Assembly (NCBI RefSeq): GCF_006345805.1
Contig: NC_042997.1
Span: forward strand, 50,654,001-50,718,000
Direction: 5' to 3'
Length of the DNA stretch: 64,000 nt
Source of the DNA: Octopus sinensis
Taxonomy: Eukaryota
Part shown: piece by piece, positions 6,962 to 59,680 of the stretch
Layout: the number at the start of each line of letters is the position of its first letter
Numbering within the stretch: the stretch's first letter is position 1
The notes under the pieces: model-generated
What the model was told of the DNA's origin: nothing
What the model saw: the letters and a program-made list of their open reading frames with translations, nothing else
Database searches by the model: none
Translations under genes and position numbers: made by a program

Positions 6962-7500
6962 AAGGTGGCGAGCTGCCAGAAAGGTTAGCACACCGGGCGA
7001 AATGCGTAGCCGTATTTCGTCTGCTGTTATGTTCTGAGTTCAAATTCCGCCGAGATCGACTGTGCCTTTCATCCTTTCGGGGTCGATTAAATAAGTACCA
7101 GTTACGCACTGGGGTCGATATAATCGACTTTAACCGTTTTTCTATCCTTGTTTGTCCACTCTGAGTTTAGCCCCTTGTGGGTAGTAAAGAAATATGTATT
7201 TCGTCTGCCGCTACGTTCAGAGTTAATATTCCGCCGAGGTCGACTTTGCCTTTCATCCTTTCGGGGTCGATTAAATAAGTACCAGTTACGCACTGGGGTC
7301 GATATAATCGACTTTAACCGTTTTTCTATCCTTGTTTGTCCACTCTGAGTTTAGCCCCTTGTGGGTAGTAAAGAAATATGTATTTCGTCTGCCGCTACGT
7401 TCAGAGTTAATATTCCGCCGAGGTCGACTTTGCCTTTCATCCTTTCGGGGTCGGTTTGTCCCATCTATATTTAGCCCCTTTTGGGCAATAAAGAAATATG
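6962..7500 (+). mobile_element. tRNA-derived SINE, family B (MetaSINE-like domain) with internal 184-bp tandem duplication
   Basis: GGTGGCGAGCTG head; GAGGTCGACTTTGCCTTTCATCCTTTCGGGGTCG domain repeated; ORFs at 7148 and 7332 begin identically, 184 nt apart. Confidence 0.85.
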
Positions 7501-8992: not shown

Positions 8993-9657
8993 AAGGCGGC
9001 GATCTGGTAGAATCGATAGCAAGCCGGGCGAAATGTTTAGCGGCATTTTGTCCGTCTTCGAGTTCTGAGATCAAATTCTGCTGAGGTCGACTTTGCCTTT
9101 CATCATTTCGGGGTGGATAAAATAAATACCTATTTCTTTACTACCCACAAGGAGCTAAACACAGAGAGGACAAACAAGGACAGACAAACGGATTAAGTCG
9201 ATTATATCGACCCCAGTGCGTAATTCGTACTTAATTTATCGACCCCGAAAGATGAAAGGCAAAGTCGACCTCGGCGGAATTTGAACTCCGAACGTAACGG
9301 CAGACGAAATACTGTTAAGCATTTTGCCCGGCGTGCTGACGTTTCTGCCAGTTAGGCAAAGGGATCGATGTAATCTTCTTACTCTTCCTCCGAACTTGCT
9401 AGCGTTGTGCCAAAATTTCAAACCAATATCATATAAAAGGCGGCGAGCTGGCTGAACCGTTAGCAAGCCGGATGAAATGCTTAGAGGCATGCTGTTGGTC
9501 TGTACGTTCTGAGTTCAAATACCGTCGAGGTCGACTCTACCTGTCATCCTTTCGGGATCTTTAAAAGAAGTACCAGTCGAGCTCTGTGGTGGATGCAATC
9601 GACTTATGGCCTCCCCCAAAATTGTTGGTCTTGAGCTAAAATTTGAAATCAATATCT
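8993..9657. mobile_element. Cluster of family B SINEs in both orientations (8993-9130 +, 9130-9425 -, 9436-9657 +)
   Basis: Repeated GGCGGCGAGCTGG-type heads and central domain. Confidence 0.8.
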
Positions 9658-21294: not shown

Positions 21295-22470
21295 TTATTC
21301 AGTTTTATTTCAAGATTTCTTACCAATAGAGAAAGAACCGGTTTCTAACCTAGATCCAAGGCTCCTTCATTGGAATTTCAACATAACAACGGGGTATTTT
21401 TGTATGTATGTATGTATGTATGTATGTACATATGTCAGGTCACTTTCGGGTGATACTGGTAACATGTAACCCAGTACAACCTGTTGCATGGACGGGTCGT
21501 CGGCGACTAAACCGGCAACCCCACCAAGCTTGCTTGGTGAGGAGGGTGCTTATTGGACACCCTATGGGATGAAAAACAAAACCCGTCAAAGGGCAGAGGA
21601 ACTCTTGAGAGTCAACGGCCATCCAATAAATGTCTTAAGGCTGTACCATGCGCGGGGACATAGAAATAATCGGACTGAATACCCGATCGCGCAGTTAAAT
21701 AAACCATTGGGAGTGAAGGACTCCTAGTCTTTGTTAGGGCATTCTTCTATGAGAAGGTAACTCAGGTAACTGGGATAACTCCGACATAAAACCTGCGGCT
21801 CAGTGGTTACCGATGATGTTGACTTGTTCTTCTTTTCGGATTATGGCTGCTGTTGCTTAGTGAGTGGGATTGACTCAGTGCACAGCCTTTCCTCACTTAA
21901 AAAAAAAATTGTTGCACAGGCATTGCACGATAACAACATTGGTTAAGCTTCGCGCAATGGCCATACTCGATAACGAGGGGGCAGCCACCATGTATGTATG
22001 TATGTACGTATGTATGTATGTATGTATGTATGTATGCATGTATATGTGCAGATTTGTATGTTTTGTTTTGTGTCTTCTCATGCGTGGAGTTACATAACTA
22101 GACATACTCATATATATTTAAATGATAAACTTCTGGAAAGTTTTACAGATTTTTACAGTTCCAGTGATGGATTGGATCTGTAGTCTTCGAATTAGCTTTA
22201 TCCTTTCTGGTTTTGAGAAGCCCAATTTCTCAAGGTTGTTATTTAGGCAGTGTATTACATATCCCAGGGCTCCAATAATTACAGGTACAAACCTGAACTT
22301 GTAATCTGGATAGAGTAACTGCAGATTTCTCAATAGTTCAGCGTAGGTATTCTCATTTTCACTGATCTTCAGCTTTATGTTAACATCTGCTGGGCAGCTA
22401 ATTTCCACAGCCCTACACGGTTTCTCTTCTCTGTCTCAAATCATTATATCAGGTCTGTTGTGCTTACATT
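21295..22470 (-). mobile_element. R4/Dong-type LINE 3' fragment: restriction-like endonuclease end plus 3' UTR, interrupted by an insert
   Basis: KHNRPDIMI...VEISCPAD...VPVIIGALG (ORF 22118-22408 and upstream); 3' UTR homologous to 59820-60080. Confidence 0.8.
21433..21990 (+). mobile_element. ~560-bp non-coding insert within (TATG)n
   Basis: Absent from the paralogous UTR at 59820-60080; TATG repeats on both sides; hairpin-rich 5' end; strand is inferred. Confidence 0.7.
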
Positions 22471-23682
22471 TTATTGAGGTCTTTTGCCCAATCTGTTGCC
22501 ACCCGGGATAAAACCTGAGTGGATAGAGGAGACTATCCGCCAGGGTCTGGGTGGTAGCGGAGCCAAGCTCCTTAATGTGAAAGATTTTCCTGCGGTTGAT
22601 TGGGTTGGGTCAAAAGCTGTTTTGACCCTTTGAACCCAATCAGCCAATCTGGTTTGTCCAAATTTTTTGAAAATGGTCGGGTGCAAGTACCCGGTGATTC
22701 TTGAGGGTACCTCCAGGTGTCATCGCTGCCTGGAGCCTGGCCATATAAAGAAAAACTGTCCCCAGGAATAAAGTAAGGTCCTGGAGCAGTTGGTTGAGAC
22801 CTCTGTAGAAGAGGGAACGAAGGCGGCTGAGGAAGCGGAGGACTCCTGAGAGAAGGGCTAAGAGGAAGAAGGGGAGCAACAATGGGTGCTCACCGAAGGA
22901 TCCTAGGGATAAGGGAGGGGAGGCGAATCTCCTGGTGAGAAGAATAGAAAGAGGAAGAGGAAGAGAAACAGGACATTGCCGTCAGTCGGTGACATAGTAC
23001 CGGAATGTCCCGGAACCTCGTCAGTAGGGGTTGTGTCACTGGCAAGGGAAGAGATACTGTCGGTGGGAATTGTACCGCCGACAGTAGAAGTGACTACCTC
23101 GTCCCCGGAGGAAGACGAATTATTGGTCTTCTACAGGGGCGGAGAGGTGGAGAAGGTGTTGGAAAAGCACCATAAGGGAGTACCTTTAACCTGCACTGGG
23201 GATCCCGAATGGCCTCCACAGATAGCTGTGGAGATCATAATGTTTCCCGTGTTGCGTACGCTGCAGGTACTCAACGAGGAATATCGCTTGTGCCAGGGCG
23301 ACGCCGACATAGCACCCGCCTTGTGCTTCAATGAGGCGTGGGTGATGGCGGAGGATGATGTCACAAGCGATGTTGGGGAGGAATATGGATAAGAGGTTGA
23401 AAAGCCTCAGTGTTATTGAAAGTTCCTAGTTTGGAAAAAAAAAGGGTAAGAGGCTTATTGCCTCATTTTGTTATTGAATTGTAAACAATGTAAGAGGTTT
23501 GTTGCCTCATTATTAATATAAGAGATCAATGTTTTCGGGGGGAAAATAGGATCGGCGGACGTCCCTTTTCCCCCCATCTATCATCATTTTCATTTTTCAT
23601 TTCATATAACATTATGTCTGTGTCGAAACCGCAGCTTCCTATCTCTATGTAAGGCCTTTATGGCCAATATAATGAAATAAAG
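22471..23682 (+). mobile_element. 5'-truncated, degenerate ORF1-only Tx1-related element
   Basis: One frame with stops: LPPGIKPEWIEE...DWVGSKAVL...VILEGTSRCHRCLEPGHIKKNC (CCHC)...RKRKRKR, in frame with ORF 22976-23392; ends GGCCTTTATGGCC-AATATAATGAAATAAAG; no EN/RT. Confidence 0.7.
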
Positions 23683-24075
23683 ATTGCTTCCCAAACAAAT
23701 GGTTCCGAGTCCAGTCCCACTGCATGACAACTTAGGCAAGTTTCTTTTATTATAGCCTCGAGCTAACTAAAGTCTTGTGAATGGATTTGTTAGACGGAAA
23801 CTAAAAGAAGCCCGCTGTATACATATATATGTGCGTGTGTGTGTATGTGTGTGTGTGTGTTTGTGCCTGTTTTCCCCCCACCGCTTGACAGCTGGCGTTG
23901 GTGTGTTTATATCATCGTAACTTGGGGGTTTGGTGTAAAGAGACCGGTAGAATAAGTACCAAACTTGAAAAAATAAGTATTGGGGTCGTTTCGTTCGACT
24001 AAAGTTTCTTCAAGGCGGTGCCCCAGAACGGCCGTAGTCTAATGACTGAAACAAATATAAGATAAACGATAAAAG
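23683..24075 (+). mobile_element. SINE family A, head truncated
   Basis: Homologous to 100-490. Confidence 0.8.
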
Positions 24076-25000: not shown

Positions 25001-25390
25001 AGGCGGCGAGCTAGCAGAAACGTTAGCACGCCGGGCGAAATGCGTAACCGTATTTCGTCTGCCGTTACGTTCTGAGTTCAAATTCTGCCGAGGTCGACTT
25101 TGCCTTTCATCCTTTCGGGATCGATAAATTAAGTACCAGTTACGCACTGGGGTTGATATAATCGACTTAATCCGTTTGTTTGTCCTTGTTTGTCCTCTCT
25201 GTGTTTAGCCCCTTGTGGGTTGTAAAGAAATAGGTATTTCGTCCTCCTTTACGTTCTAAGTGCAAATTCCGCCGAGGACGACTCTGCCTTTCATCCTCTT
25301 AAGTTTGATAAGATTAGTACCAGTTGAGCCCTGGGGTCGATGTAATCGATCCCGAACTTGTTGGTCTTTTGTCAAAATTTGAAACCAATA
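25001..25390 (+). mobile_element. SINE family B, dimeric
   Basis: GGCGGCGAGCTAGCAGAAACGTTAGC head; central domain present twice. Confidence 0.85.
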
Positions 25391-41247: not shown

Positions 41248-41334
<87 letters not shown>

Positions 41335-41348
41335 GAAGATAGATAGAT
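40975..41348. repeat. (GACA)n/(GGTA)n/(GATA)n compound microsatellite
   Basis: Direct reading. Confidence 0.9.
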
Positions 41349-42129
41349 ATGTTTCTTTATTAGCCACACAGGGCTGCACACAGATAGAACAAATTACAAG
41401 GTAGAGCTTTTCTTTTGAAGGTTTAAAAAAAAATTAAAAAATAATAATAATAATAATAAAATAAAAAATAAAATAAAATAAAAAAGGGGGGGTCGATCAA
41501 AAGGGATCGTAAAAGGAGAGAAAGAGGACAAAAAAAGGGGGGAGAGGAAAAAAAAATTGATCAATTGGGATCGTTATCACAGAAATGTCAATATGAAGTG
41601 TAAAGGGGAGGACAGGTGAGGTTTACCCGTGGAAAGAAAAGCCTACGGAAAAGACCACGGTAACCTCGGTCAATGAAGTCACATGTTATATTTCTTTTTT
41701 ATTTTTTTGCAAATAAGCAACTCTCTGTATTAATTTTTACGGTTCATAGAATCATAGTCAAGGTGGCTTCGTCATTCATACGTGCCATCCTTGCTACATT
41801 CACCCATCTTTTTTTAAAACATTCACTAGACAAAACTTGCCTCTCTACTCTCACTTTTTTCTTCAAGTGATACTTGAAGAAGTTGATGAGAGATTGACCA
41901 GAGAGGAAAGTGTTTGTCTCTAATCCTTCAGACGCGTCCACCAGATACATTCTTTCGCCATAGCCACAAGTATGATAAAAATAGCTCTTCCTTCCCGTTT
42001 GAAGGAAGGAGGCGTGACGATATTAACGATAGACTCGGCGGATAAACCGACACGTCCCACACGTGACAGCAGTCGTTCGACATAAGCCCACAGGTGGGAA
42101 ATTGCTGGACACTGCACGATTGCGTGCAG

Positions 42130-42130
<1 letters not shown>
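41349..42130 (-). mobile_element. 5'-truncated Tx1-clade copy 1
   Basis: [28 protein letters not shown]2 end plus 3' UTR ending CCCTGTGTGGCTAATAAAGAAACAT; GATA repeats both sides. Confidence 0.9.
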
Positions 42131-42192
<62 letters not shown>

Positions 42193-42282
42193 CAGATAGA
42201 CAGTTAGACAGACAGAGAGACAGTTAGGCAGATCGACAGACGGACACACAGTTAGACAGACAGACAGACAGACAGACAAACT

Positions 42283-42352
<70 letters not shown>

Positions 42353-42463
42353 CAGACAAACAGACAGACAGTCAAGCAGGCAAACAGACAGTTAGACAGA
42401 CAGACAGGCAAATTGACAGACGGACACAATTAGACAGACAGACAGACAGACTAATAGATAGAT

Positions 42464-42900
42464 ATGATTCTTTATTAGCCACACAGGGCTGAACAGAGAG
42501 GGGACAAATTACAAAGTAGAGCTTTTCTTTTGGGGGATGAAAAAAGGGTGGGGTAGTTTTTCGATCAAAAGTGATCGTAAAAAAAAACGATCAATAGGGA
42601 TCGTGTGTCACAGAAATGTCATGATGTAAAGTGTAAAGGGGGAATCAGATGAGGTTTATCCGTGGAAAGAAAAGGCTACGGAAAAGACCACGGTAACCTC
42701 GGTCAATAATGTCACATGTTAACACATTTAATTGCAAGCAAGTAACTCTGTTTTACATTTTTCCGGGTTCATAGGATTAAGCTCAAGGTGGCTTCGTCAT
42801 TCATACGTGCCATCCTTGCTACATTCACCCATCTTTTTTTGAAACATTCGGTAGACAAAACTTGCCTCTCTACTCTCACTTTCCTTTTCAAGTGATACTT
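42464..42900 (-). mobile_element. 5'-truncated Tx1-clade copy 2
   Basis: Same 3' end; GATA repeats both sides. Confidence 0.9.
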
Positions 42901-42973
<73 letters not shown>

Positions 42974-42975
<2 letters not shown>

Positions 42976-43084
42976 ATTTCTTTATTGGCCACACAGGGCT
43001 GCACACAGATGGGACAAGTTACAAGGTAGAGCTTTTCTTTTGGGGGATGAAAAAAACAAAAAAACAAAAGAAACAAAAAAAAAA
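42974..43084 (-). mobile_element. 5'-truncated Tx1-clade copy 3
   Basis: Terminal ~110 bp of the 3' UTR; GATA repeats both sides. Confidence 0.85.
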
Positions 43085-43405
43085 TAGATAGATAGATAGA
43101 GAATATGTAATCAGTTTTCGTCAACTGACGTAATGTAATATGTATGTAGTATCAGTGCTCAGGTTTACCACTCCGGCTTGAACCGCAGCTGAAAGTGTGG
43201 TGCTGAGACTGTTTATCAGAGGTGCTAAGAAGTGGTTTTTCCTTGAGCATGTAGATTGAAAGATAGACAGACAGATAGGTAGATATATAAACAGACAGAC
43301 AGACAGACAGATAGATAGAAAGACACACACAGACAGACAGACAGATAGATAGAAAGACACACACAGACAGCTAGCTAGCTAGATAGCTAACTAGATAGAT
43401 AGACG

Positions 43406-43502
<97 letters not shown>

Positions 43503-43809
43503 GTAACTTTCTTTTATTAGCCACACAGGGCTGAATACAGAGGGGACAAATACAAATGCAGAGCTTTTCTTTTCGAGGGTGGAAAAAAAGAAAATAAATG
43601 TAAGATTGCGATCAAAAGGGATCGAGAGGAGGAAAAAAAAGAAAAGAAATCGTGTATCACAGAAACAATGATAAAAAAATTGATAAAACAAGATTGGGTT
43701 CATCCGTGGGAAGAAAAGTCTACAGAAAAGACCACGGGAAACTCAGTCAGGGAGGAAATAACCACATGAGATCAAAATGCTCTCTTTCTTTCTTTTTTAC
43801 GATCTACAG

Positions 43810-46800
43810 GATCATGCTCAAAATGGTTTCGTCACTCGCACGCACCATCTTTGCAACATTCACCCATCTTTTTTTGAATCTTTCGCGAGACAAAACTTCC
43901 CTCTCCATTCTCACCTTCCTTTTCAAGTGGTACTTGAAAAAGTTGATGAGCGATTGACCAGAGAGGTAAGTGTTTGTCTCTAATCATTTCGCTCGGGTCC
44001 ACCACACACATTCTTTCACTATGGCCACCAGTACGATGAAAACTGCCTTGCCTTCCCGGTTGAGGGAAGGGGGCAGAGCAATACCCACGACAGACTCGGC
44101 CGATAGGCGGATTCGTCCCACACGTGACAGCAGCCGTTCGGCATAAGCCCACAAGTCTGAAATGGTTGGACATTGCACGTGTCTGTAGAGCTTATCCCGA
44201 ACAGGTAATGCTTCTCGATAGCACTACCAGGCCAGGGATCTTTGGTGATTGTTCATAGGTCCCGGCCCGAAAGTTGTCCTGAACAGGCGGGTCAGGTGTT
44301 CCTCGTCGACGCCCAGACTCTGCCCGAGTTCGTCGTCGCACCTCCCCTCCACTAATCCTCTATAGAATGCCTTTGTTGTGATGGAGTCGCACAAGTTCGA
44401 TCCCGGACGGCAGAGTTGCTTGAGAGCAACGCGACACTCGCGGTGCCATTCGCCTAGCCTCGGTCTCTGCTTGATCCATGACTGTAGTTCGTCCAAGGAG
44501 ACGAGCTGTGGGAAAGCGCGCCGCACAAAAGACGACCACACCTGTTCACCGTTGTCTATGAAGCGCCGGAGATGTCGCAGTCTCAGCGCATGTCTGCACA
44601 TCATCAACCACGGCATGCCCAGCCCTCCATTTAGCGGGTGTTGACAGCAAATGGATCGCCTAACCATCGGAACGTTTCCCTTCCACAAGAAGCGGAAGAG
44701 TATACGTTCCAGTTTGGTGATGGTTGGGTCGGGACAAGGCACGACGGTCAGACGATACTCGATGACGGATGCGATGTACGCGTTCGCCACCTCCGCCGAC
44801 CTTTTAGGATAGCTTTCTCTTAGCCCATTTCTGGGTGAGAGTAGCCACCCTAGTCGTTATCTCGCCCCAGTTCTTCTCCATTTGGAGGTCCGGACCGAAC
44901 CAGACCCCGAGCAATTTAACCGGTCCGTCCGTCCAGCGTCCCACGATGGAGACGCTGTTGGACGGCATGGGCCTGCTTCTCCAGGTGCCGAGCCGCAAGC
45001 CCACTGACTTTTCCCGGTTAATTTTTGCTCCCGTTACCGCTTCGTATTCTTTTAGTGTCTCGCCGACCAGCTCGATGTGCTCGTAGCTCGACACTATGAC
45101 GGTGACGTCATCCGCGTATGCAGACACGCTCCTCCCGCATCCCAGCTCTCGTGGGATGCCCCTCAGCGTCGCCAGTTTCCGCAGTAGTGGCTCAAGAGTC
45201 AATACATACAGCAGCGATGAGAGGGGGCATCCCTGACGAACCGAACGCATGATGTTAAAAGGTCTGGATAGATGACCATTTACGCGAACTACTGAGCGGA
45301 TGCCGCTGTATAAGGCAGCGATCCAACCGCGGAAAACTGGACCGAAACCAGCCGCTTTAAGGACAGCCTCCAAGTAGTGATGGTCTACCCTATCGAAAGC
45401 TTTTGATTGATCCAAATTGATCAGCGCCCCACCCATGCCAGGATTCTTAACTACCCTGTCTATGATGTAGCGCATCAGATGGAGGTTGTCATGAATACTT
45501 CTACCCGGCACGGCGCATGTTTGCGCCTTGTCGATTAGTTTCTTGGTGACAAGCGCCAACCTCTCGGCTAACACCTTGGCCAAAATTTTCAAATCTGCGT
45601 TGAGCAGAGGGATGGGCCTGAAATTATCTATAACGTCCCCCTTGTTTGGGTCTTTCTTAATCAGTGCCACTGCTCCTCGCTTTACAAAAGCAGGAATACT
45701 CCCGTTTTGCTGCCAGTTGCAGTAGACAGCTGCCAAGACGCCTCCAAACAAGTCTGGCATATGAAAATAAAGTTCGTAGGGCAGACCATCCAAACCTGGT
45801 GACTTGTCTCTCGCGCAGCCTACCATCGCATCCTGTACGTCCGCAGCTGTGATAGGCCTTTCACAAGACTCCACCTCTCTTGCTGAGAGTCGTGGCAAGG
45901 CATGCAGGTAGGCACTAAAGTCCACTCTGCGTTCTGACCCACCACTTGTCCCAAACAGTTGGGTGAAGTGTTGTTGAAAAGCCCCACACATCCTTTTAGG
46001 CTCGAGCAATTCGCACCCCTGTTCATCTATAAGAGACTTGATGGTGGCTCTGTTGCCTCGTTGCGTCTCCACCACTCGGGCCTCTTGGGCGGCTCCAACT
46101 CCTTCGTTCCTCAGAGCACGCATCCTAGCCCTGACAACGCATCCCTTGTGTTTGGCGTTGAGGTGTTGGTCGAGGGCCAATCTCGCCGCCAGGACGTTGG
46201 ACGCGATGCCAGTTCTAAGTGCCTCTTCTAAAACCTTAACTAATTCTCCCTCTATTCTATTTCGGTCTAATGCTAGGGCTTTACTGTATCTGAGTGATTC
46301 TGCTTTAATTGCTTTTTTAGGGCATTCCACCATCTGTTGTTGATGATGGTACCTGTCAAAGCTCTCTTAACTAATGTGCTGATCCGGTCCTTGTAACCCT
46401 GTCGTGCTGTAAAAGACGCGTTCAGTTTCCATTAACCAGGACCCTGTCTATGTGTCTTATCTAAGTCAAGTGTACAAGTCACAAACTTGTGATCTGTGTA
46501 ACTGACTATATGAAATTGTGGACAACCTACACTATTTTTATCTATTGTCCTACAGAATACTCTATCTAAGTATGATCTGGACGACCCGATGCGGTTACTC
46601 CATGTCCACATTGGCACATTCGGGTGGTCCAGTCGGTACCTGTCAGACAGTTGGAAATGTCTGAGCAGGTCTTTGAGGCATTTTCATCCCCTTCTATTGC
46701 TATCTCTGCCCACGTAGTCTAGATGCGTGTCCAGGGTGGCATTCCAATCCCCCACTAAAAGTAAAGGACGAGACGTTCCCATGAAAGACTCTAGACGTCG

Positions 46801-47165
46801 AAAGAAATCTGGTCGGCCTGTTAAGGACGGAGCATAAACTGCCTACAGTCGAAAAGCACACTCATTGCTGCCATCGACATCCAAAACGACCAGCCTACCC
46901 TCCGGGTCTAGGAAAATTGCTCTTACTTTGAGATCCAGACTCTTCCGGAGAAGCACCGCGTTGCCACCTCCGCCCATTCTCGGTAGACACGGAGAAAAAT
47001 AAATGTTGAAATGTGTACCGAAACTGTGCTGGAGTGCCCGCAAGCTGTGGAGTCTGGTCTCACTGATGGCTATGATATTCAGATTTAGTGACTTGATGTC
47101 ATTTAACAGGTAGCCTTGTTTCCAAGGTGACCCCAAGCCACGTACATTTATACTGCCTATTCTAG
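43810..47165 (-). pseudogene. Tx1 ORF2 (APE endonuclease + reverse transcriptase) with stops and a deletion
   Basis: SINVRGL, ISETRL, VGDWNA, YLDRVF, TDHKFV; RT KSPGLDG, FRPIPLLNADLK, LDQSKAFDRV, RQGCPLS, AYADD (ORF 44804-46333); stops near 46843, 46685, 46432, 44804, 44224. Confidence 0.92.
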
Positions 47166-47259
47166 CATGTTCCGATAAAATTGTGTTTTACACACGAAAG
47201 AAAGTGCAAAAAAGGAAAGAGAGAGAAAAGGTTATTGTTGTTCGAAAGTCCTTTGTTTT

Positions 47260-49478
47260 TCATCTCACAGTCTTCTTCCATGAGGTTTTGTATAGTTTCT
47301 TTGATGAGTACTTTTGAAATCTCCCTACTGCATCGGGGTAAAGAGATTTCAGGGTGCTGTATGCGTTCTGTGTTATGTGTATTATTTTAATGTTTTGTGG
47401 TGGTGTTGTGCGTGGGTGGTTACTTGTTTTTATGTCGTTTTCAGTTATGTTGGTGTTTGACCTAATGTGTTCCATTAGGTCGTGGTTGTTTGTGTTTATG
47501 GCTGTCAACATTGTTGGGGGGCTTGATGATGGTGTGTTTGTGTTGATGTGTTTGTTTTCTGTGGATGTTTTTGTTTCGGGAGTGGTGAATCTTCCTGCTT
47601 TGTTTATTTTCTTTTCTTTATTTTTCCCTTTTCTTCTCCCACCCTGTGGCTATTTGCCAATCTTCTGTTTCTTCTTCGTCTAAGGACAAATCAGAAGAAT
47701 CAGAGCTTGGAAGAGGGAAAATATTGGGGTCTATTGTAGACTGTGTTGATTTTGTTGTTGTTGTTGGTTGGTGAGCGTTAGGTTGTGGTGTATGCGGTTT
47801 TGGAGGTGGGGTGTGGGTATTTTGTGCTTGAGTGATTGTAGGTATTGTTGTGTTGTTTGGGGTGTCAATTTTGTGGGGAATTAGAGTAGTAATGTTTTCT
47901 TCTTTCTTCATTTCGATGAGTGTCTTTTTGGCAGATGTCCTTGGTTTGGGAGTTGGTTATTCTTGTTGTTGTTGTTGGTGGTGTTGCTTCTGTTTTTGTT
48001 GTGCAGTTGGTGTGGTTGTTTGGTTGGTGAGGTTTGTTTTTTGTTGATTTTCTGTGATTAGTCCTGTTCGTGCAAAACGTGGTGTGGGTAGTAAAGCTGG
48101 TTTATTTGTTTTTTCCGGCTGCCGTTATTGTTGCTGTTGTTTTCTTGCGGCAGATTTGCAATCTTTTTTTAGGTGTTGCTCACTGCCGCATATGTAGCAA
48201 CGTGGTCTTCTGCCATCGACGACCACATACAACTTGTGGTCTTCTGATACACATATCTGGGTGGGTATTTTCTTTATGTCCTCTTGGTTTATATGTAGTA
48301 GAAATTCTACTTTTTTTCCCACCCAGTTTTTGTGCTTCGTGACCGTGGTTCCTAAAATTGTGAAATCTTCCATTTTCACACATAAGGCCTTTACTAGCCA
48401 TAGATTGTTAGCTATTTTTGGGACATTGTTTAAAGTGATCTTAGTCACTTTCTGTCCACGATAACTTGGTGTTAGTTGAAGTTCATCTGAATGAAGAGTT
48501 AGCGTTGAGAAACGTCTTGCTAACTCTTCAGTGTGGAATACCACTTGTATGTGTGCGAACTTGTTCCACCAGGTCACATACTCTTTGTAGTTCCAGATGG
48601 GTTTCAAGCATTTTTCGATTTTGCTTGTGTTAGCCTTCTCTGGACTTTGTGTTTTCTTATTAATTATTTTATAAATAATTGTTCTTTTTTTTTTCATCTT
48701 CTAATATTTCTTCTGGTATGTTTATTTTTACTATACCATCTACTTCCGTTATTAAAATGTTCGTGTCTTTTATTTGTTGTGCAGTAAAATATACTGTTGT
48801 CTTTTTTTCTTTTATCGCCTCGGCGAAATTTGTTGTTGTTTTGTTATTGTTGTTACTGGTGGTGATGTTGTTGGCTGCAGTTGGTAAAATCGGTGTATTT
48901 GGTTTGATTGTGCAAATAGGAAGGGGTGGAAAATTACTTGCATAGTTTATCCCTGTATTCGAGCAGCTTTTGTCAATTTGTTTGGTGGTCACAGTCTTTT
49001 GTTTATTCCCTTCAGTTCTTGTTGTTGGAGTAAAACAGGTCTGAACGGAATTGTTGTTGTTGTTATTGTTGTTTTTGTTGTTAGTGATGGTGTCAGTGGC
49101 AGAAGAGACAGCCGTGGCAGCAGATGTCGAAATGGTGGCGCAATTTTTATTTTTGTTGTCATTGTTATTGTTGTTGTTGTTGGTAGTTGAGGTAGTGGAG
49201 GAGGTGGCGGTGGTGGTGGTGGTGGTGGAGGCGGTGGTGGTGGAGGCGGTGGTGGTGGAGGCGGTGGTGGTAGCAGTAGTAGTCTCGTGGTTGTTGTTGT
49301 TAGTGGTGGTGGTGGTGACAGGGCTGTTACCGCACGTGGTTGCAGCGTTCATTCGACCGTTATTCATGTTTGCACTTTGCGTGCGTACGTTCTTTTTTTC
49401 TCCTAGCGTTTCCAAACTAGGAAAATGCTGCTCCATAAAGGAACGCGACCAGCGTTCTACAATAAAATTTCTCGACAT
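47260..49478 (-). pseudogene. Tx1 ORF1 (RRM-like region + CCHC knuckle, long Thr/Asn tracts), frameshifted
   Basis: ORFs 48669-49478, 48125-48697 (DGRRPRCYICGSEQHLKKDC), 47618-47911, 47260-47511; frameshift in an A homopolymer near 48690. Confidence 0.8.
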
Positions 49479-49675
49479 TTTCTAATGTTGAGAAGAAAAT
49501 TACAGAAATGAAATGGGGTTGAAACTGCCCCTAGGGGCGAATTCCTCCCTTGGAAAAGCACTCAAACGAAAGTTGGGTGCCTTACACACCTTATTTGCAA
49601 AAATGTACATAAAAATTGGGCTATAAATAGTCAAAATAAACGATTACCTTCGGAGCCGAAGTGACAGCACGTCCA

Positions 49676-49836
<161 letters not shown>

Positions 49837-50182
49837 ATGTTTCTTTATTAGCCACACAGGGCTGCACACAGACGGGACAGATTACAAAGTAGAGCTTTTC
49901 TTTTTTGGGAAAAGAAAAAAAACGGTGGGATAGGTTTTCGATCAAAAGGGATCGTAAAAGGGAGAGAAGAAGAAGAAAAAAAAAGAAAAAAGAAAAAAGG
50001 AAAAGAAACAAAAGATGAATAGGGATCATGTATCACAGTGTCACGATGTAAGATGTAAAGGGGGAAGCAGATAAGGTTTATCCGTGAGAAGAAAAGCCTA
50101 CGGAAAAGACCGCGGTAACCTCGGTCAATATTGTTACATGTAACCACATTTGTTTGCAAGTGGGAAACCCTCTGTTTTAAAC
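49837..50182 (-). mobile_element. 5'-truncated Tx1-clade copy 5 (3' UTR only)
   Basis: Same 3' end; followed by (GATA)n 50183-50275 and then unrelated DNA. Confidence 0.9.
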
Positions 50183-57199: not shown

Positions 57200-57280
<81 letters not shown>

Positions 57281-57281
<1 letters not shown>

Positions 57282-57800
57282 CTTTATATATATAAAACTG
57301 AGAATGTGTGTCTGTCTGTCTGTCTGTGTGTTTCCCTAAAACTTGAGAACTACACAACCAATTTCATTCAAATTTTACACATGCCTTACTTAGGGTCCAT
57401 GTAGTTTCATTGGCAAAAAAAAATGTTCAGTTTCTTGCCTAGGGCGAGCCCATAGCAATATCATATCTTCTCCACTATTTCAGTATTACGTGTTAAAAGT
57501 GAAACAAAAACATTTCTCTATTTTATGTCAGATACTTTCACTTTAACAATAAAAATAATAATAACAATCGAATTATATGTAGTAAGTAATAATTAAAATC
57601 AACCTAAAGTATAATATAATCGTAACATAACAAAAGTAAAAATAGCAATTGGTATAAAATTGCATCAATGCCTTGAACTTGAATAAGTGGTTTCACATAA
57701 ATGGGAATAAATTAAAAATAAAATTAGCGTACAGAAATGGAATAGTCCAGATGGATAATAAAAAATTAAATTAAAGAAAAGACTATTGTCTATAAAGTAT
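57281..57800 (+). mobile_element. Helitron-type 5' portion
   Basis: TCTTTATATATATAAAA...TGTCTGTC start like 30532; 3' CTAG end not seen. Confidence 0.5.
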
Positions 57801-57817
57801 ACAATGTAGAGAAAAAA

Positions 57818-59492
57818 GGTCGCGTTTTTTTGCGCTCTGTAAAATTCGGTTAAAAAAGAAAAACAACAAAAAGTGAATTGTGGTTGCGGAATTGGAACGT
57901 CGGTTGGTGCGGTTTCGCGTCGCACTGGTTCTGTGCGTCGCACGTTTTCTGTTCGGGAGGCCGTTTTTCGGTCTGAGGCGACTATGAGCCGCCTCTACCA
58001 AACGGATGAGATGGAAGGGAGAAATTTCTCTGAAAATTCGTCGACATCTGAGGAGGAGTTGGCGCTGAAAAAAATGGAAAGCACCTATGCAGGTATAACG
58101 AAGAAGTCAACAGAAAAAGAGATAGACCTGGCTAAGTTGACGGACTTCCAGGAGTTCATGAAGGAGGAGGAGAACGGAGAGGTTGAGCTGCTGCCTCCAG
58201 CAGGGCGCGGAGACTGGTTCCATCGTAGAACCATTAAATATAAAGTATTTATGAATGGAGGTAGAAAAATGGAAGTGTTTAACATGGAAGCAATTGAAGA
58301 GGCTTTCAAACGGACAGGAGAAGAAATTGTGTACATGACAAAAGGATTAGAATATGGAACCATAACGGTACAATTTAAAAGTGAGAAAGCAGCCAGGAAT
58401 ATAGCAGCCAAGGTGGTGAGTACAGAAAAGTTTTACTTGTTCCCCTCGTATTTGAATAGAAGGACCACCAGAATTAGGGTGGAAGGAATACCTCCACACC
58501 TAGAGGGCGAATTAATAACGGCTGCGGTTATCAAAGGAATGAAGATAAAGTGGACATCCTCCACGCCATTATGAAATATGAAGGCGTGAGAGGTGCCACA
58601 CTAGTAATGAACATACAGACGGAGGCGGAAGTTATAGAAAAGCTAACGGACAGTATAAAAACTGGAAATATTATTATGAGAGTGTGGGTGGAGGGTAGGG
58701 CGCCCAGGTGCTACAAGTGTGGCATGAGGGGTCACATAAGAGCCTACTGCCCTCCACCACTAAAGGAAAAAGAAAAGGAATCGTCGCGGAAGCCCCAAAA
58801 GAGGAAGAAACCAAAGAGAACCAAAGGGAAAAAGAAACGACAGAAGAAGAGGAGATGCAACAAGAGTGGGAAGAAGGAAGAAAAAAGAGAAAAAGAAAGA
58901 AAAAGAAAACTGTGCGAAGCCCCAACCCACCCCAACACCACCCGCACCCTCTGAATCCCACCCTTCCCCTGCAGACAGTGAACCCACCCGCTCCCCTCCA
59001 ACAAGAAAACAAAAGAAAAATAACAATACAGACAGACAAGAGTTTGAAAACGAACCCAGGCCGAACATTTATATTGTGACTGAACAGAAAGAGGTTGAAA
59101 GGGTAATGGAGGAGTATGAATGGTATGAAATGGATGGGACCAGATATGCAGTGCTGGAAAAGAAGAATATAGATGAGTTTGTGTTGAGGTGTGAAAGGGA
59201 GAATTGGGAGGTGAAAGGTACAAGAATGAGCGATGAATTCGTGGAATATATGGAGGACAGTTTCGGAGTAAGAATGGATATGGATGGTCTTCGTATTGGG
59301 AATGAACATTCAGGTGACAGTGAAAACAAAAGGACAGGTAAGTGATGCTGGCGGAGGGGGCCGTTAGCATCGCTTTCATATTATCATTTTTTCATTTTCA
59401 TTTGCTCATAAATTTAATCATATTGTTCTATGTCCCCCATGTTTTGTTATGTCCGCCATTCTTCGTAGCCCCTGGTGGGTAATAAAGAAATA
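57818..59492 (+). mobile_element. ORF1-only (no EN/RT) Tx1-related element, apparently full length
   Basis: CpG-rich leader, frameshifted ORF1, pyrimidine-rich tract, then GTAGCCCCTGGTGGGTAATAAAGAAA matching the Tx1 3' end. Confidence 0.8.
57984..59345 (+). pseudogene. ORF1 protein (RRM-like, CCHC knuckle, acidic/basic tract, C-terminal domain) with about three frameshifts
   Basis: ORFs 57873-58574, 58550-58954 (EGRAPRCYKCGMRGHIRAYC), 58708-59079, 58866-59345. Confidence 0.75.
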
Positions 59493-59680
59493 ACATGGAG
59501 GAAAGCACCTTCGAAAAGTGTCTTGGTGCGACTATGAAAGATATCTAATCAGAGGCGGTAAATTCGCCACAATAGAAGCAAGGTTCGAGTCAATGGAGTG
59601 TGCAAGGGAGTACTCGACTCGAACGTGCAAAGTAGAAATATTTTATTTTTACCTTTATATCTGGGATGTAGGACGTCTCG
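59493..59680 (+). mobile_element. Fragment of another ORF1 variant
   Basis: YLIRGGKFATIEARFESMECAREYSTR aligns by eye with YMTKGLEYGTITVQFKSEKAARNIAAK. Confidence 0.6.

Follow-up and report, generated by a model that had tools for sequence, protein, structure and literature searches.

Non-LTR retrotransposons that encode ORF1 alone are a described kind of element. HAL1 of mammals is a non-autonomous, ORF1-only LINE derivative present in multiple lineages (PMC5753468, which cites Bao and Jurka, 2010). The part of PMC5786205 that treats bipartite non-autonomous LINEs names HeT-A (Jockey), HAL1 (L1), and Ag-Sponge (CR1) as those with an ORF1, and proposes that the ORF1-like protein of such elements co-assembles with the proteins of a helper. 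Insertion into a fixed target is, in turn, familiar from the Tx1 clade, e.g., Tx1 in Tx1D, Keno in U2, and Kibi and Koshi in microsatellites (PMC4494074). Crocodilian Tx1-Mar and SINEU-3 both reside in Mariner-N4, and this sharing of a site was used as an argument for trans-mobilization (PMC4494074). Tx1-clade elements that target other repeats and have passengers at the same site are also reported in PMC4640811.

Here we describe family A, a group of ORF1-only elements from Octopus sinensis. Like HAL1, they encode ORF1 alone, occur in multiple lineages, and probably rely on a complete partner LINE belonging to the L1 group. Unlike HAL1, they carry an ORF1 of the Tx1 kind with a zinc knuckle and not of the mammalian L1 type, end in a hairpin and AATAAAG without poly(A), are specific for a SINE head, and have no parent LINE identifiable from their 5′ part. 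HAL1 in the strict sense ends in poly(A). An assignment of family A to HAL1 in this sense was considered and rejected, since Pfam recognizes only a CCHC knuckle in its ORF1 and the AATAAAG end lacks poly(A). With HeT-A, HAL1, and Ag-Sponge, family A shares the retention of one ORF1-like protein and a 3′ end common with a complete LINE. In contrast to them, it shares only about 40 nt with that LINE, its ORF1 is 28–31% identical to that of the proposed helper, and the list in the relevant part of PMC5786205 contains no Tx1-type member. Compared with the Tx1-clade systems, the likeness consists in an APE-type LINE fixed in another repeat, a passenger sharing the site, and tandem stacking, whereas in the present system the targeted repeat is a SINE, hit in its head, and the role of passenger falls to protein-coding ORF1-only elements instead of SINEs.

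Thus, the HAL1-like lifestyle and the Tx1-type target specificity are each known, and their combination was not found in our literature search. This search yielded no Tx1-type ORF1-only element or SINE-head target in octopus, although Repbase and the O. vulgaris supplements may list such families; in the O. vulgaris annotation itself, L1-Tx1 comes up a single time, as a table entry. We consider it highly probable that the window, i.e., the whole 64,000-nt stretch analyzed here, contains a dead 5′-truncated copy of a non-LTR retrotransposon that is non-autonomous and encodes ORF1 alone. The family to which it belongs occupies one fixed base of a SINE head, and insertion was likely carried out by the endonuclease and the reverse transcriptase (RT) of a complete Tx1-like LINE residing at the same base.

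The family A copy in the window

Positions 22496..23682 of the plus strand are occupied by a decayed, 5′-truncated family A copy that corresponds to the last 1.2 kb of an element of about 2.1–2.2 kb and is 83.7% identical to positions 979–2188 of a full-length copy (L009). An ORF1-only element had been proposed here by a first-pass annotation made from the sequence alone. The element is real, as homology to other copies runs from 22496 to 23682; the proposed end stands, while the start has to be moved from 22471 to 22496.

The copy opens with the end part of the conserved N-terminal ORF1 domain (22496..22717), which was recognized by hhalign comparison of families A and B and is presumably RRM-like, judging by the Tx1 type of ORF1. 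It is followed by a CCHC zinc knuckle, CHRCLEPGHIKKNC (22718..22759; zf-CCHC, E 0.009 in the relative L168), by a basic linker whose frame is here shifted relative to the family (22858..22937), and by a family-specific C-terminal domain of about 90 aa with the stop codon (23111..23392), which is recognized by selection between subfamilies and by the stop being common to 17/20 copies. The terminal ORF1 stop lies at 23390. The 3′ UTR (23393..23682), again on the plus strand, comprises a TCATTTT tract at 23584–23597, a 4-bp hairpin at 23653–23665, and an AATAAAG end at 23676–23682, with no poly(A).

Most of the peptides quoted in the first-pass annotation (LPPGIKPEWIEETIRQGL, DWVGSKAVL, CHRCLEPGHIKKNC, RKRKRKR, and LLVFYRGGEVEKVL) indeed fall into one frame with stops, spanning 22496–23392. 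The description of this frame as hidden from the list of open reading frames is true only in part, the last 159 codons (22913–23392) being listed as a stop-free frame without a start codon. The additional match EEEGEQQW is an off-frame artifact: compared with other copies, the window copy has a 2-nt deletion near 22858 and a 28-nt deletion near 22937, and because of these two deletions the stretch between them has left the family frame, in which a basic linker (...SNNGCSPK...) is read. The shifted frame across the linker reads ...KRKKGSNNGCSPKDPRDKGGEANL, as in relatives with open frames. Stops 22904 and 22910 of the originally proposed frame are common to 18/20 and 19/20 other copies, respectively, and the four other internal stops to 0–2 of 20. 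A tract said to be the same at ~23584 and ~59384 does not contain the exact 14-mer TCATTTTTCATTTT at either place. Both places do match the looser pattern (TCAT{3,6})x2, which has no third match anywhere in the 64-kb window, and the tract is therefore genuine and specific. The hairpin and the AATA-rich end were read correctly; the hairpin has the sequence GGCC-TTTAT-GGCC.

Directly behind the tail, at 23683..24052 (plus strand, end approximate), lies the 3′ part of a host tRNA-like SINE, starting from the target word, which is AAGCTTGCTTCC in other copies and decayed here. On the other side, the 3′ fragment of an abundant LINE unrelated to family A occupies 22040..22495 of the minus strand (start approximate); its translation (...HNRPDI...ISCPAD) reaches 22495, so that the LINE end abuts the truncated 5′ end of the A copy back to back. 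This fragment is very abundant, with a depth far above that of family A, and we take it to be the end of a Dong/R4-like LINE that has a motif of restriction-like endonucleases. Neither the left half of the SINE nor the left target duplication is present here, and the 5′ kilobase of the element is missing from the window. The joint may stem from an insertion followed by a deletion, or from a single deletion spanning the border of the two elements. The copy probably lost its left flank after insertion and then decayed neutrally. It is dead and bears no sign of a host function.

Layout, age, and selection

A DNA search of the 2.72-Gb genome produced 2652 candidates, from which 40 relatives with 78–87% identity were scored. 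A protein query consisting of the C-terminal 93 residues, and hence holding no flank, produced 1,625 candidates. Among the 150 that were scored, 82 loci were inspected, namely the 30 best, 40 from the weakest end of the ranking, and 12 chosen for their long open frames.

Full-length copies measure about 2.0–2.2 kb, with a 5′ UTR of ~0.6 kb, a single ORF, and a 3′ UTR of ~290 nt, and have one common arrangement of the ORF1 stop, 3′ UTR, and tail. An ORF2 between ORF1 with its C-terminal domain and the tail was found at 0/82 loci, the sole ORF2 match in this set being located beyond the tail and the SINE. The RT-less layout is therefore a family trait (82/82) and not an accident, as had been suspected from two elements of the window. 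The suggestion that the class is old and diversified also holds: copies are 0.15 apart, the subfamilies are 71–75% identical in the N-terminal domain, and at least five ORF1-only lineages were seen. The mean pairwise distance of 0.15 was obtained for 21 copies, whose mean distance to the column majority is 0.079 (0.066 for the window copy). On the scale given for Octopus vulgaris in PMC13282606, where 0.065 corresponds to 18 My and 0.09 to 25 My, family A would be roughly 18–22 My old, provided that this calibration transfers.

Between A subfamilies, dN/dS is 0.19–0.26 for the N-terminal domain and mostly 0.2–0.6 (range 0.08–0.91) for the C-terminal domain; between dead A copies, the latter shows 0.7–1.45. 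ORF1, including its C-terminal domain, has evolved under purifying selection between subfamilies, and hence the lineage required this protein during its RT-less spread. In A-type ORF1, Pfam detects only the CCHC knuckle; neither an RRM in this protein nor any match to the C-terminal domain was found in Pfam. A homologue search with an A-type ORF returned nothing, and the best score of an Atlas search for the C-terminal domain, 0.86, is a weak lead. When the A alignment served as query in a representative search, the single match was a repetitive protein and was judged spurious. Our best guess is that the domain may serve ORF1 as a lineage-specific module for RNA binding or assembly. Family A is covered by contigs from four runs with four organism labels, none of those listed spanning the insertion in the window, and no RNA data set was listed as containing it.

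A fixed target in the SINE head

The target word of the tRNA-like SINE head directly follows the A tail in 64/82 loci (25/30 of the best matches, 11/12 of those with long frames, and 28/40 of the weakest), a count in which L169 and L170 may represent a single locus that was assembled in duplicate, and in 64/70 loci with an intact tail. The junction is missing in 18/82 loci, six of which have an intact tail and another flank. At the 5′ side, a SINE head ending in the same word directly precedes the element in 15/30 loci of the DNA search, among them that of the 5′-truncated copy L004. Where both flanks survive, the target duplication is 12–16 bp long, i.e., 12–13 bp, or 15–16 bp if the AAG common to tail and head is counted as target. 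Target duplication, 5′ truncation, and a fixed 3′ end, the marks of retrotransposition, are thus all present.

Genome-wide, exact tail–target junctions number 1,295, compared with 0 for a reversed control, and there are 31,301 exact empty SINE heads. Family A (64/82) and the complete element described below (30/30) both exceed the share of 20% of flanks in one repeat that serves as a criterion in PMC4494074. Motifs resembling the A box and B box flank the target site when compared by eye with the consensus; neither ARAGORN nor Rfam called a tRNA in the SINE head. A CORE-SINE of octopus, OR2, has been described (PMC4758252). In four A copies (L002, L006, L010, and L027), the 5′ end includes an additional 15-nt version of the target word, decayed and as if derived from a previous landing site; this suggests past transcription of a source copy from inside its own target. 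The first pass had overlooked the fixed SINE target, the candidate helper, and the existence of ORF1-only LINEs as a described kind.

A complete element at the same base

Two of 30 junction loci had an ORF2 upstream. When the end of ORF2 was used as a query without any flank, 30/30 loci finished at the same SINE base as family A. Young complete copies are 97% identical and 5.4 kb long, with the SINE head and the duplication in front. Among the complete elements, L227 contains an open ORF1 of 487 aa and an open ORF2 of 1136 aa, with an A-type ORF1-only copy directly behind. Its ORF2 has the Pfam domains Exo_endo_phos, RVT_1, and zf-RVT, and its best PDB match is L1 ORF2p (E 3e-65), i.e., it combines an APE-type endonuclease with an RT of the L1 group. 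The nearest named relative of this RT is an Argonauta protein, and no named Tx1 reference appeared among its matches. The element is probably Tx1-like, judging by the type of its ORF1 (as characterized in PMC5203782) and by its target specificity. Copies of the complete element as old as family A are broken (L086, L087, L220, and L221). The older copies reside in an old SINE variant, and the young, 97%-identical ones in a young variant.

ORF1 of family A is 28–31% identical to that of the complete elements, and clear DNA similarity to the sampled complete elements is confined to the final 38–42 nt, i.e., the tail. One more A-type DNA match was observed at positions 1946–2234 of L220, upstream of the ORF1 of that element; the 5′ part of family A had no DNA match to the sampled complete elements. 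As only this ~40-nt tail and the distant ORF1 are common to both, a parent LINE was not found; it may be extinct or unsampled. The true helper could, likewise, be an unsampled family.

The window itself harbors a LINE of complete layout (ORF1, endonuclease, and RT) on the minus strand at approximately 43500..49560, between (TATC)n runs. It has a third type of tail and is not the likely helper of family A. Two more tails of related elements are located at 41352–41373 and 49840–49861 within the minus-strand region 41250–49900, again with the third tail and target combination; three such combinations coexist in one genome.

The common tail and its hairpin

The hairpin and the AATAAAG end, i.e., the last ~40 nt, are shared by family A and the complete elements, A copies ending in AATAAAG without poly(A). 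The 4-bp stem occurs as GGCC/GGCC, TGCC/GGCA, CGCC/GGCG, and GGCT/AGCC. Pairing was observed in 93% of 114 cells, compared with 8–47% for slid controls, and two-sided changes in 2/4 pairs, a result that does not exceed shuffles (272/500); these counts come from related rows that are not independent events, and from a stem picked from the same sequences. Tail type and SINE variant are associated (n = 53: GGCC/old 30, GGCA/young 12, GGCA/old 7, and GGCC/young 1). GGCC tails are found in the old variant in 30/31 cases, and junctions in the young variant have GGCA with one exception, passengers and candidate helpers alike.

Element B and other ORF1-only lineages

Element B (57822..59492, plus strand), which served for comparison and is not a part of family A, represents a young 1.67-kb ORF1-only family with full-length copies 95–99% identical. 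It has an intact 454-aa ORF1 in 5/25 loci, no ORF2, and a mean distance of 0.011. Its tail, CCC-CTGGT-GGGT followed by AATAAAGAAATA, and its target both differ from those of family A: the fixed site lies in a ~1.2-kb repeat that starts with TC and ends in a hairpin and CTAG (57200–57821 and 59493–59680 in the window, and the flanks of L046). We assume these to be Helitron-like ends. No clear target duplication was seen at the insertion of B. An old ORF1 fragment is situated in this host repeat right behind the insertion site. A second SINE with the B-type CCC..GGGT AATAAAGAAATA tail is found at 7168–7498, 9131–9157, and 25206–25232, in tandem inside its own copies.

Element B forms stacks, in which other ORF1-only families and the complete element of B itself also take part. 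Head-to-tail stacks of the B group with 1.7-kb spacing were observed in L178–L185, L228, L229, L231, and L232, interspersed with members of a third ORF1-only family and with a complete LINE having the same tail. One B-group copy (L178, 1129–2769) differs from its neighbors by many changes of the K/E/R-to-G/R/E type, such as dense A-to-G change would give.

Further members of this set combine features of A and B. Family D (L233–L257, e.g., L233 1501–3221) is an old ORF1-only family of ~1.7 kb at the same SINE base as A, with a B-like N-terminus. Some elements with the SINE tail and target have a B-like ORF1 that is 45–47% identical to B and 25–29% to A; in a 29-row tree they are sister to B (100/99). 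The occurrence of B-like proteins with the SINE tail suggests at least one switch of tail and target, or separate births.

The first-pass annotation had assumed that A and B share a C-terminal domain. By sequence, this has to be rejected: C-terminal profiles of the two families align with an hhalign probability of 0.1–0.6%, compared with 99.1% (E 4e-19; 24% identity) for the N-terminal domains, and in a search of 7,377 frames neither C-terminal HMM detected the other family at E < 10. Profile comparison is of limited power for alignments this shallow, as no two of six C-terminal regions, complete elements included, match in an all-against-all comparison (probability 1.2% or less). The model of the B domain is confident (pLDDT 90), a small alpha/beta arrangement b-a-b-b-a-b-a-b, with no clear fold match (best Foldseek E 0.085; best VIA Z 4.5), and a new fold is not implied. 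The model of the A domain is poor (pLDDT 49); it begins b-a and has helices at a spacing similar to that in B.

Descent of A and B from one ancient ORF1-only ancestor, with C-terminal domains homologous beyond the reach of profiles, nevertheless deserves consideration, although we regard it as rather unlikely. The predicted similarity of the two models would fit it, as would the TCATTTT tract, specific to A and B within the window, and a weak match of the A domain to that of family D, whose N-terminus is B-like (hhalign 11–27%, score 21–24, compared with a shuffled maximum of 20.1 in 40; the D profile has 6 rows). A clade of A, B, and B-like proteins is not rejected by the AU test (p 0.32), nor is a grouping of A with the B-like proteins (p 0.20). 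In the free tree, however, A forms a long separate branch that does not join B, and the N-terminal identity of A and B is lower than that of B and the candidate helper (34–35%). The C-terminal profiles speak against it too, including those of D and B (0.3–0.5%). Moreover, the ORF1 of complete LINEs likewise terminates in a lysine-rich linker followed by a small C-terminal region, and therefore this region is not special to RT-less elements; and HAL1 has arisen several times independently (PMC5753468). The question concerns descent only, and a common ancestor is compatible with the helper mechanism proposed below.

Proposed mechanism of spread

The observations behind the proposed helper mechanism are the single-ORF layout, the fixed target, the 12–16-bp duplication, the truncations, the complete element at the same site, the ~40-nt tail, and selection. 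By analogy with known LINE biology, the RNA of family A would be translated and coated by its own ORF1 protein. The ORF2 protein of the complete element would then recognize the hairpin and AATAAAG end, nick the SINE head, and copy the RNA by target-primed reverse transcription, so that the tail would choose the helper and the endonuclease of the helper would choose the target. Judging from sequence comparison, such trans-mobilization is likely.

The fixed site might instead reflect one event and not targeting, if a single insertion into a SINE had been followed by amplification of the composite as a unit. The presence of the same SINE 3′ of nearly every copy agrees with this scenario, but we find it highly improbable, because the points at which truncated copies are joined to the SINE head vary along the element (L004, and the tail-only L058 and L060) and unrelated families (A subfamilies, B-like elements, D, and complete LINEs) share the base. 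It is further opposed by the use of both old and young SINE variants and by stacks in which one copy succeeds another, following the duplicated target word (L226, L227). The idea that A copies are complete LINEs which lost ORF2 by independent deletions after insertion can draw on internally deleted complete elements at the site (L219, L086), but is refuted by the junction common to A copies, the agreement of full-length copies in length and arrangement, the lack of ORF2 before the tail in all 82 loci, and the divergence of subfamilies under purifying selection while ORF1-only, and it retains next to no probability.

If trans-mobilization by the complete element is accepted, a broader scheme may be proposed, tentatively and with some reserve. 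ORF1-only lineages would be long-lived and older than their current helpers, and the ~40-nt tail would act as an address code re-tuned to whichever LINE is active, the target changing with the tail, as in the B-like ORF1 with the SINE tail and in B with the tail of the Helitron-like site. Each lineage would keep its own fast-evolving C-terminal domain under selection, possibly for sorting of RNA into particles or evasion of host control.

Biological significance

Family A adds a Tx1-type, site-specific case to the few LINE parasites that keep their own ORF1, and it forms a nesting on three levels, in which an ORF1-only element would depend on a LINE whose target is, in turn, a SINE. RT-less elements of this kind are easily missed or mislabeled in the repeat annotation of cephalopods. 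The natural variants collected here bear on two questions, namely, why a non-autonomous element keeps ORF1 under selection, and what minimal RNA suffices for a LINE ORF2 to accept a passenger, in this case about 40 nt with compensatory changes.
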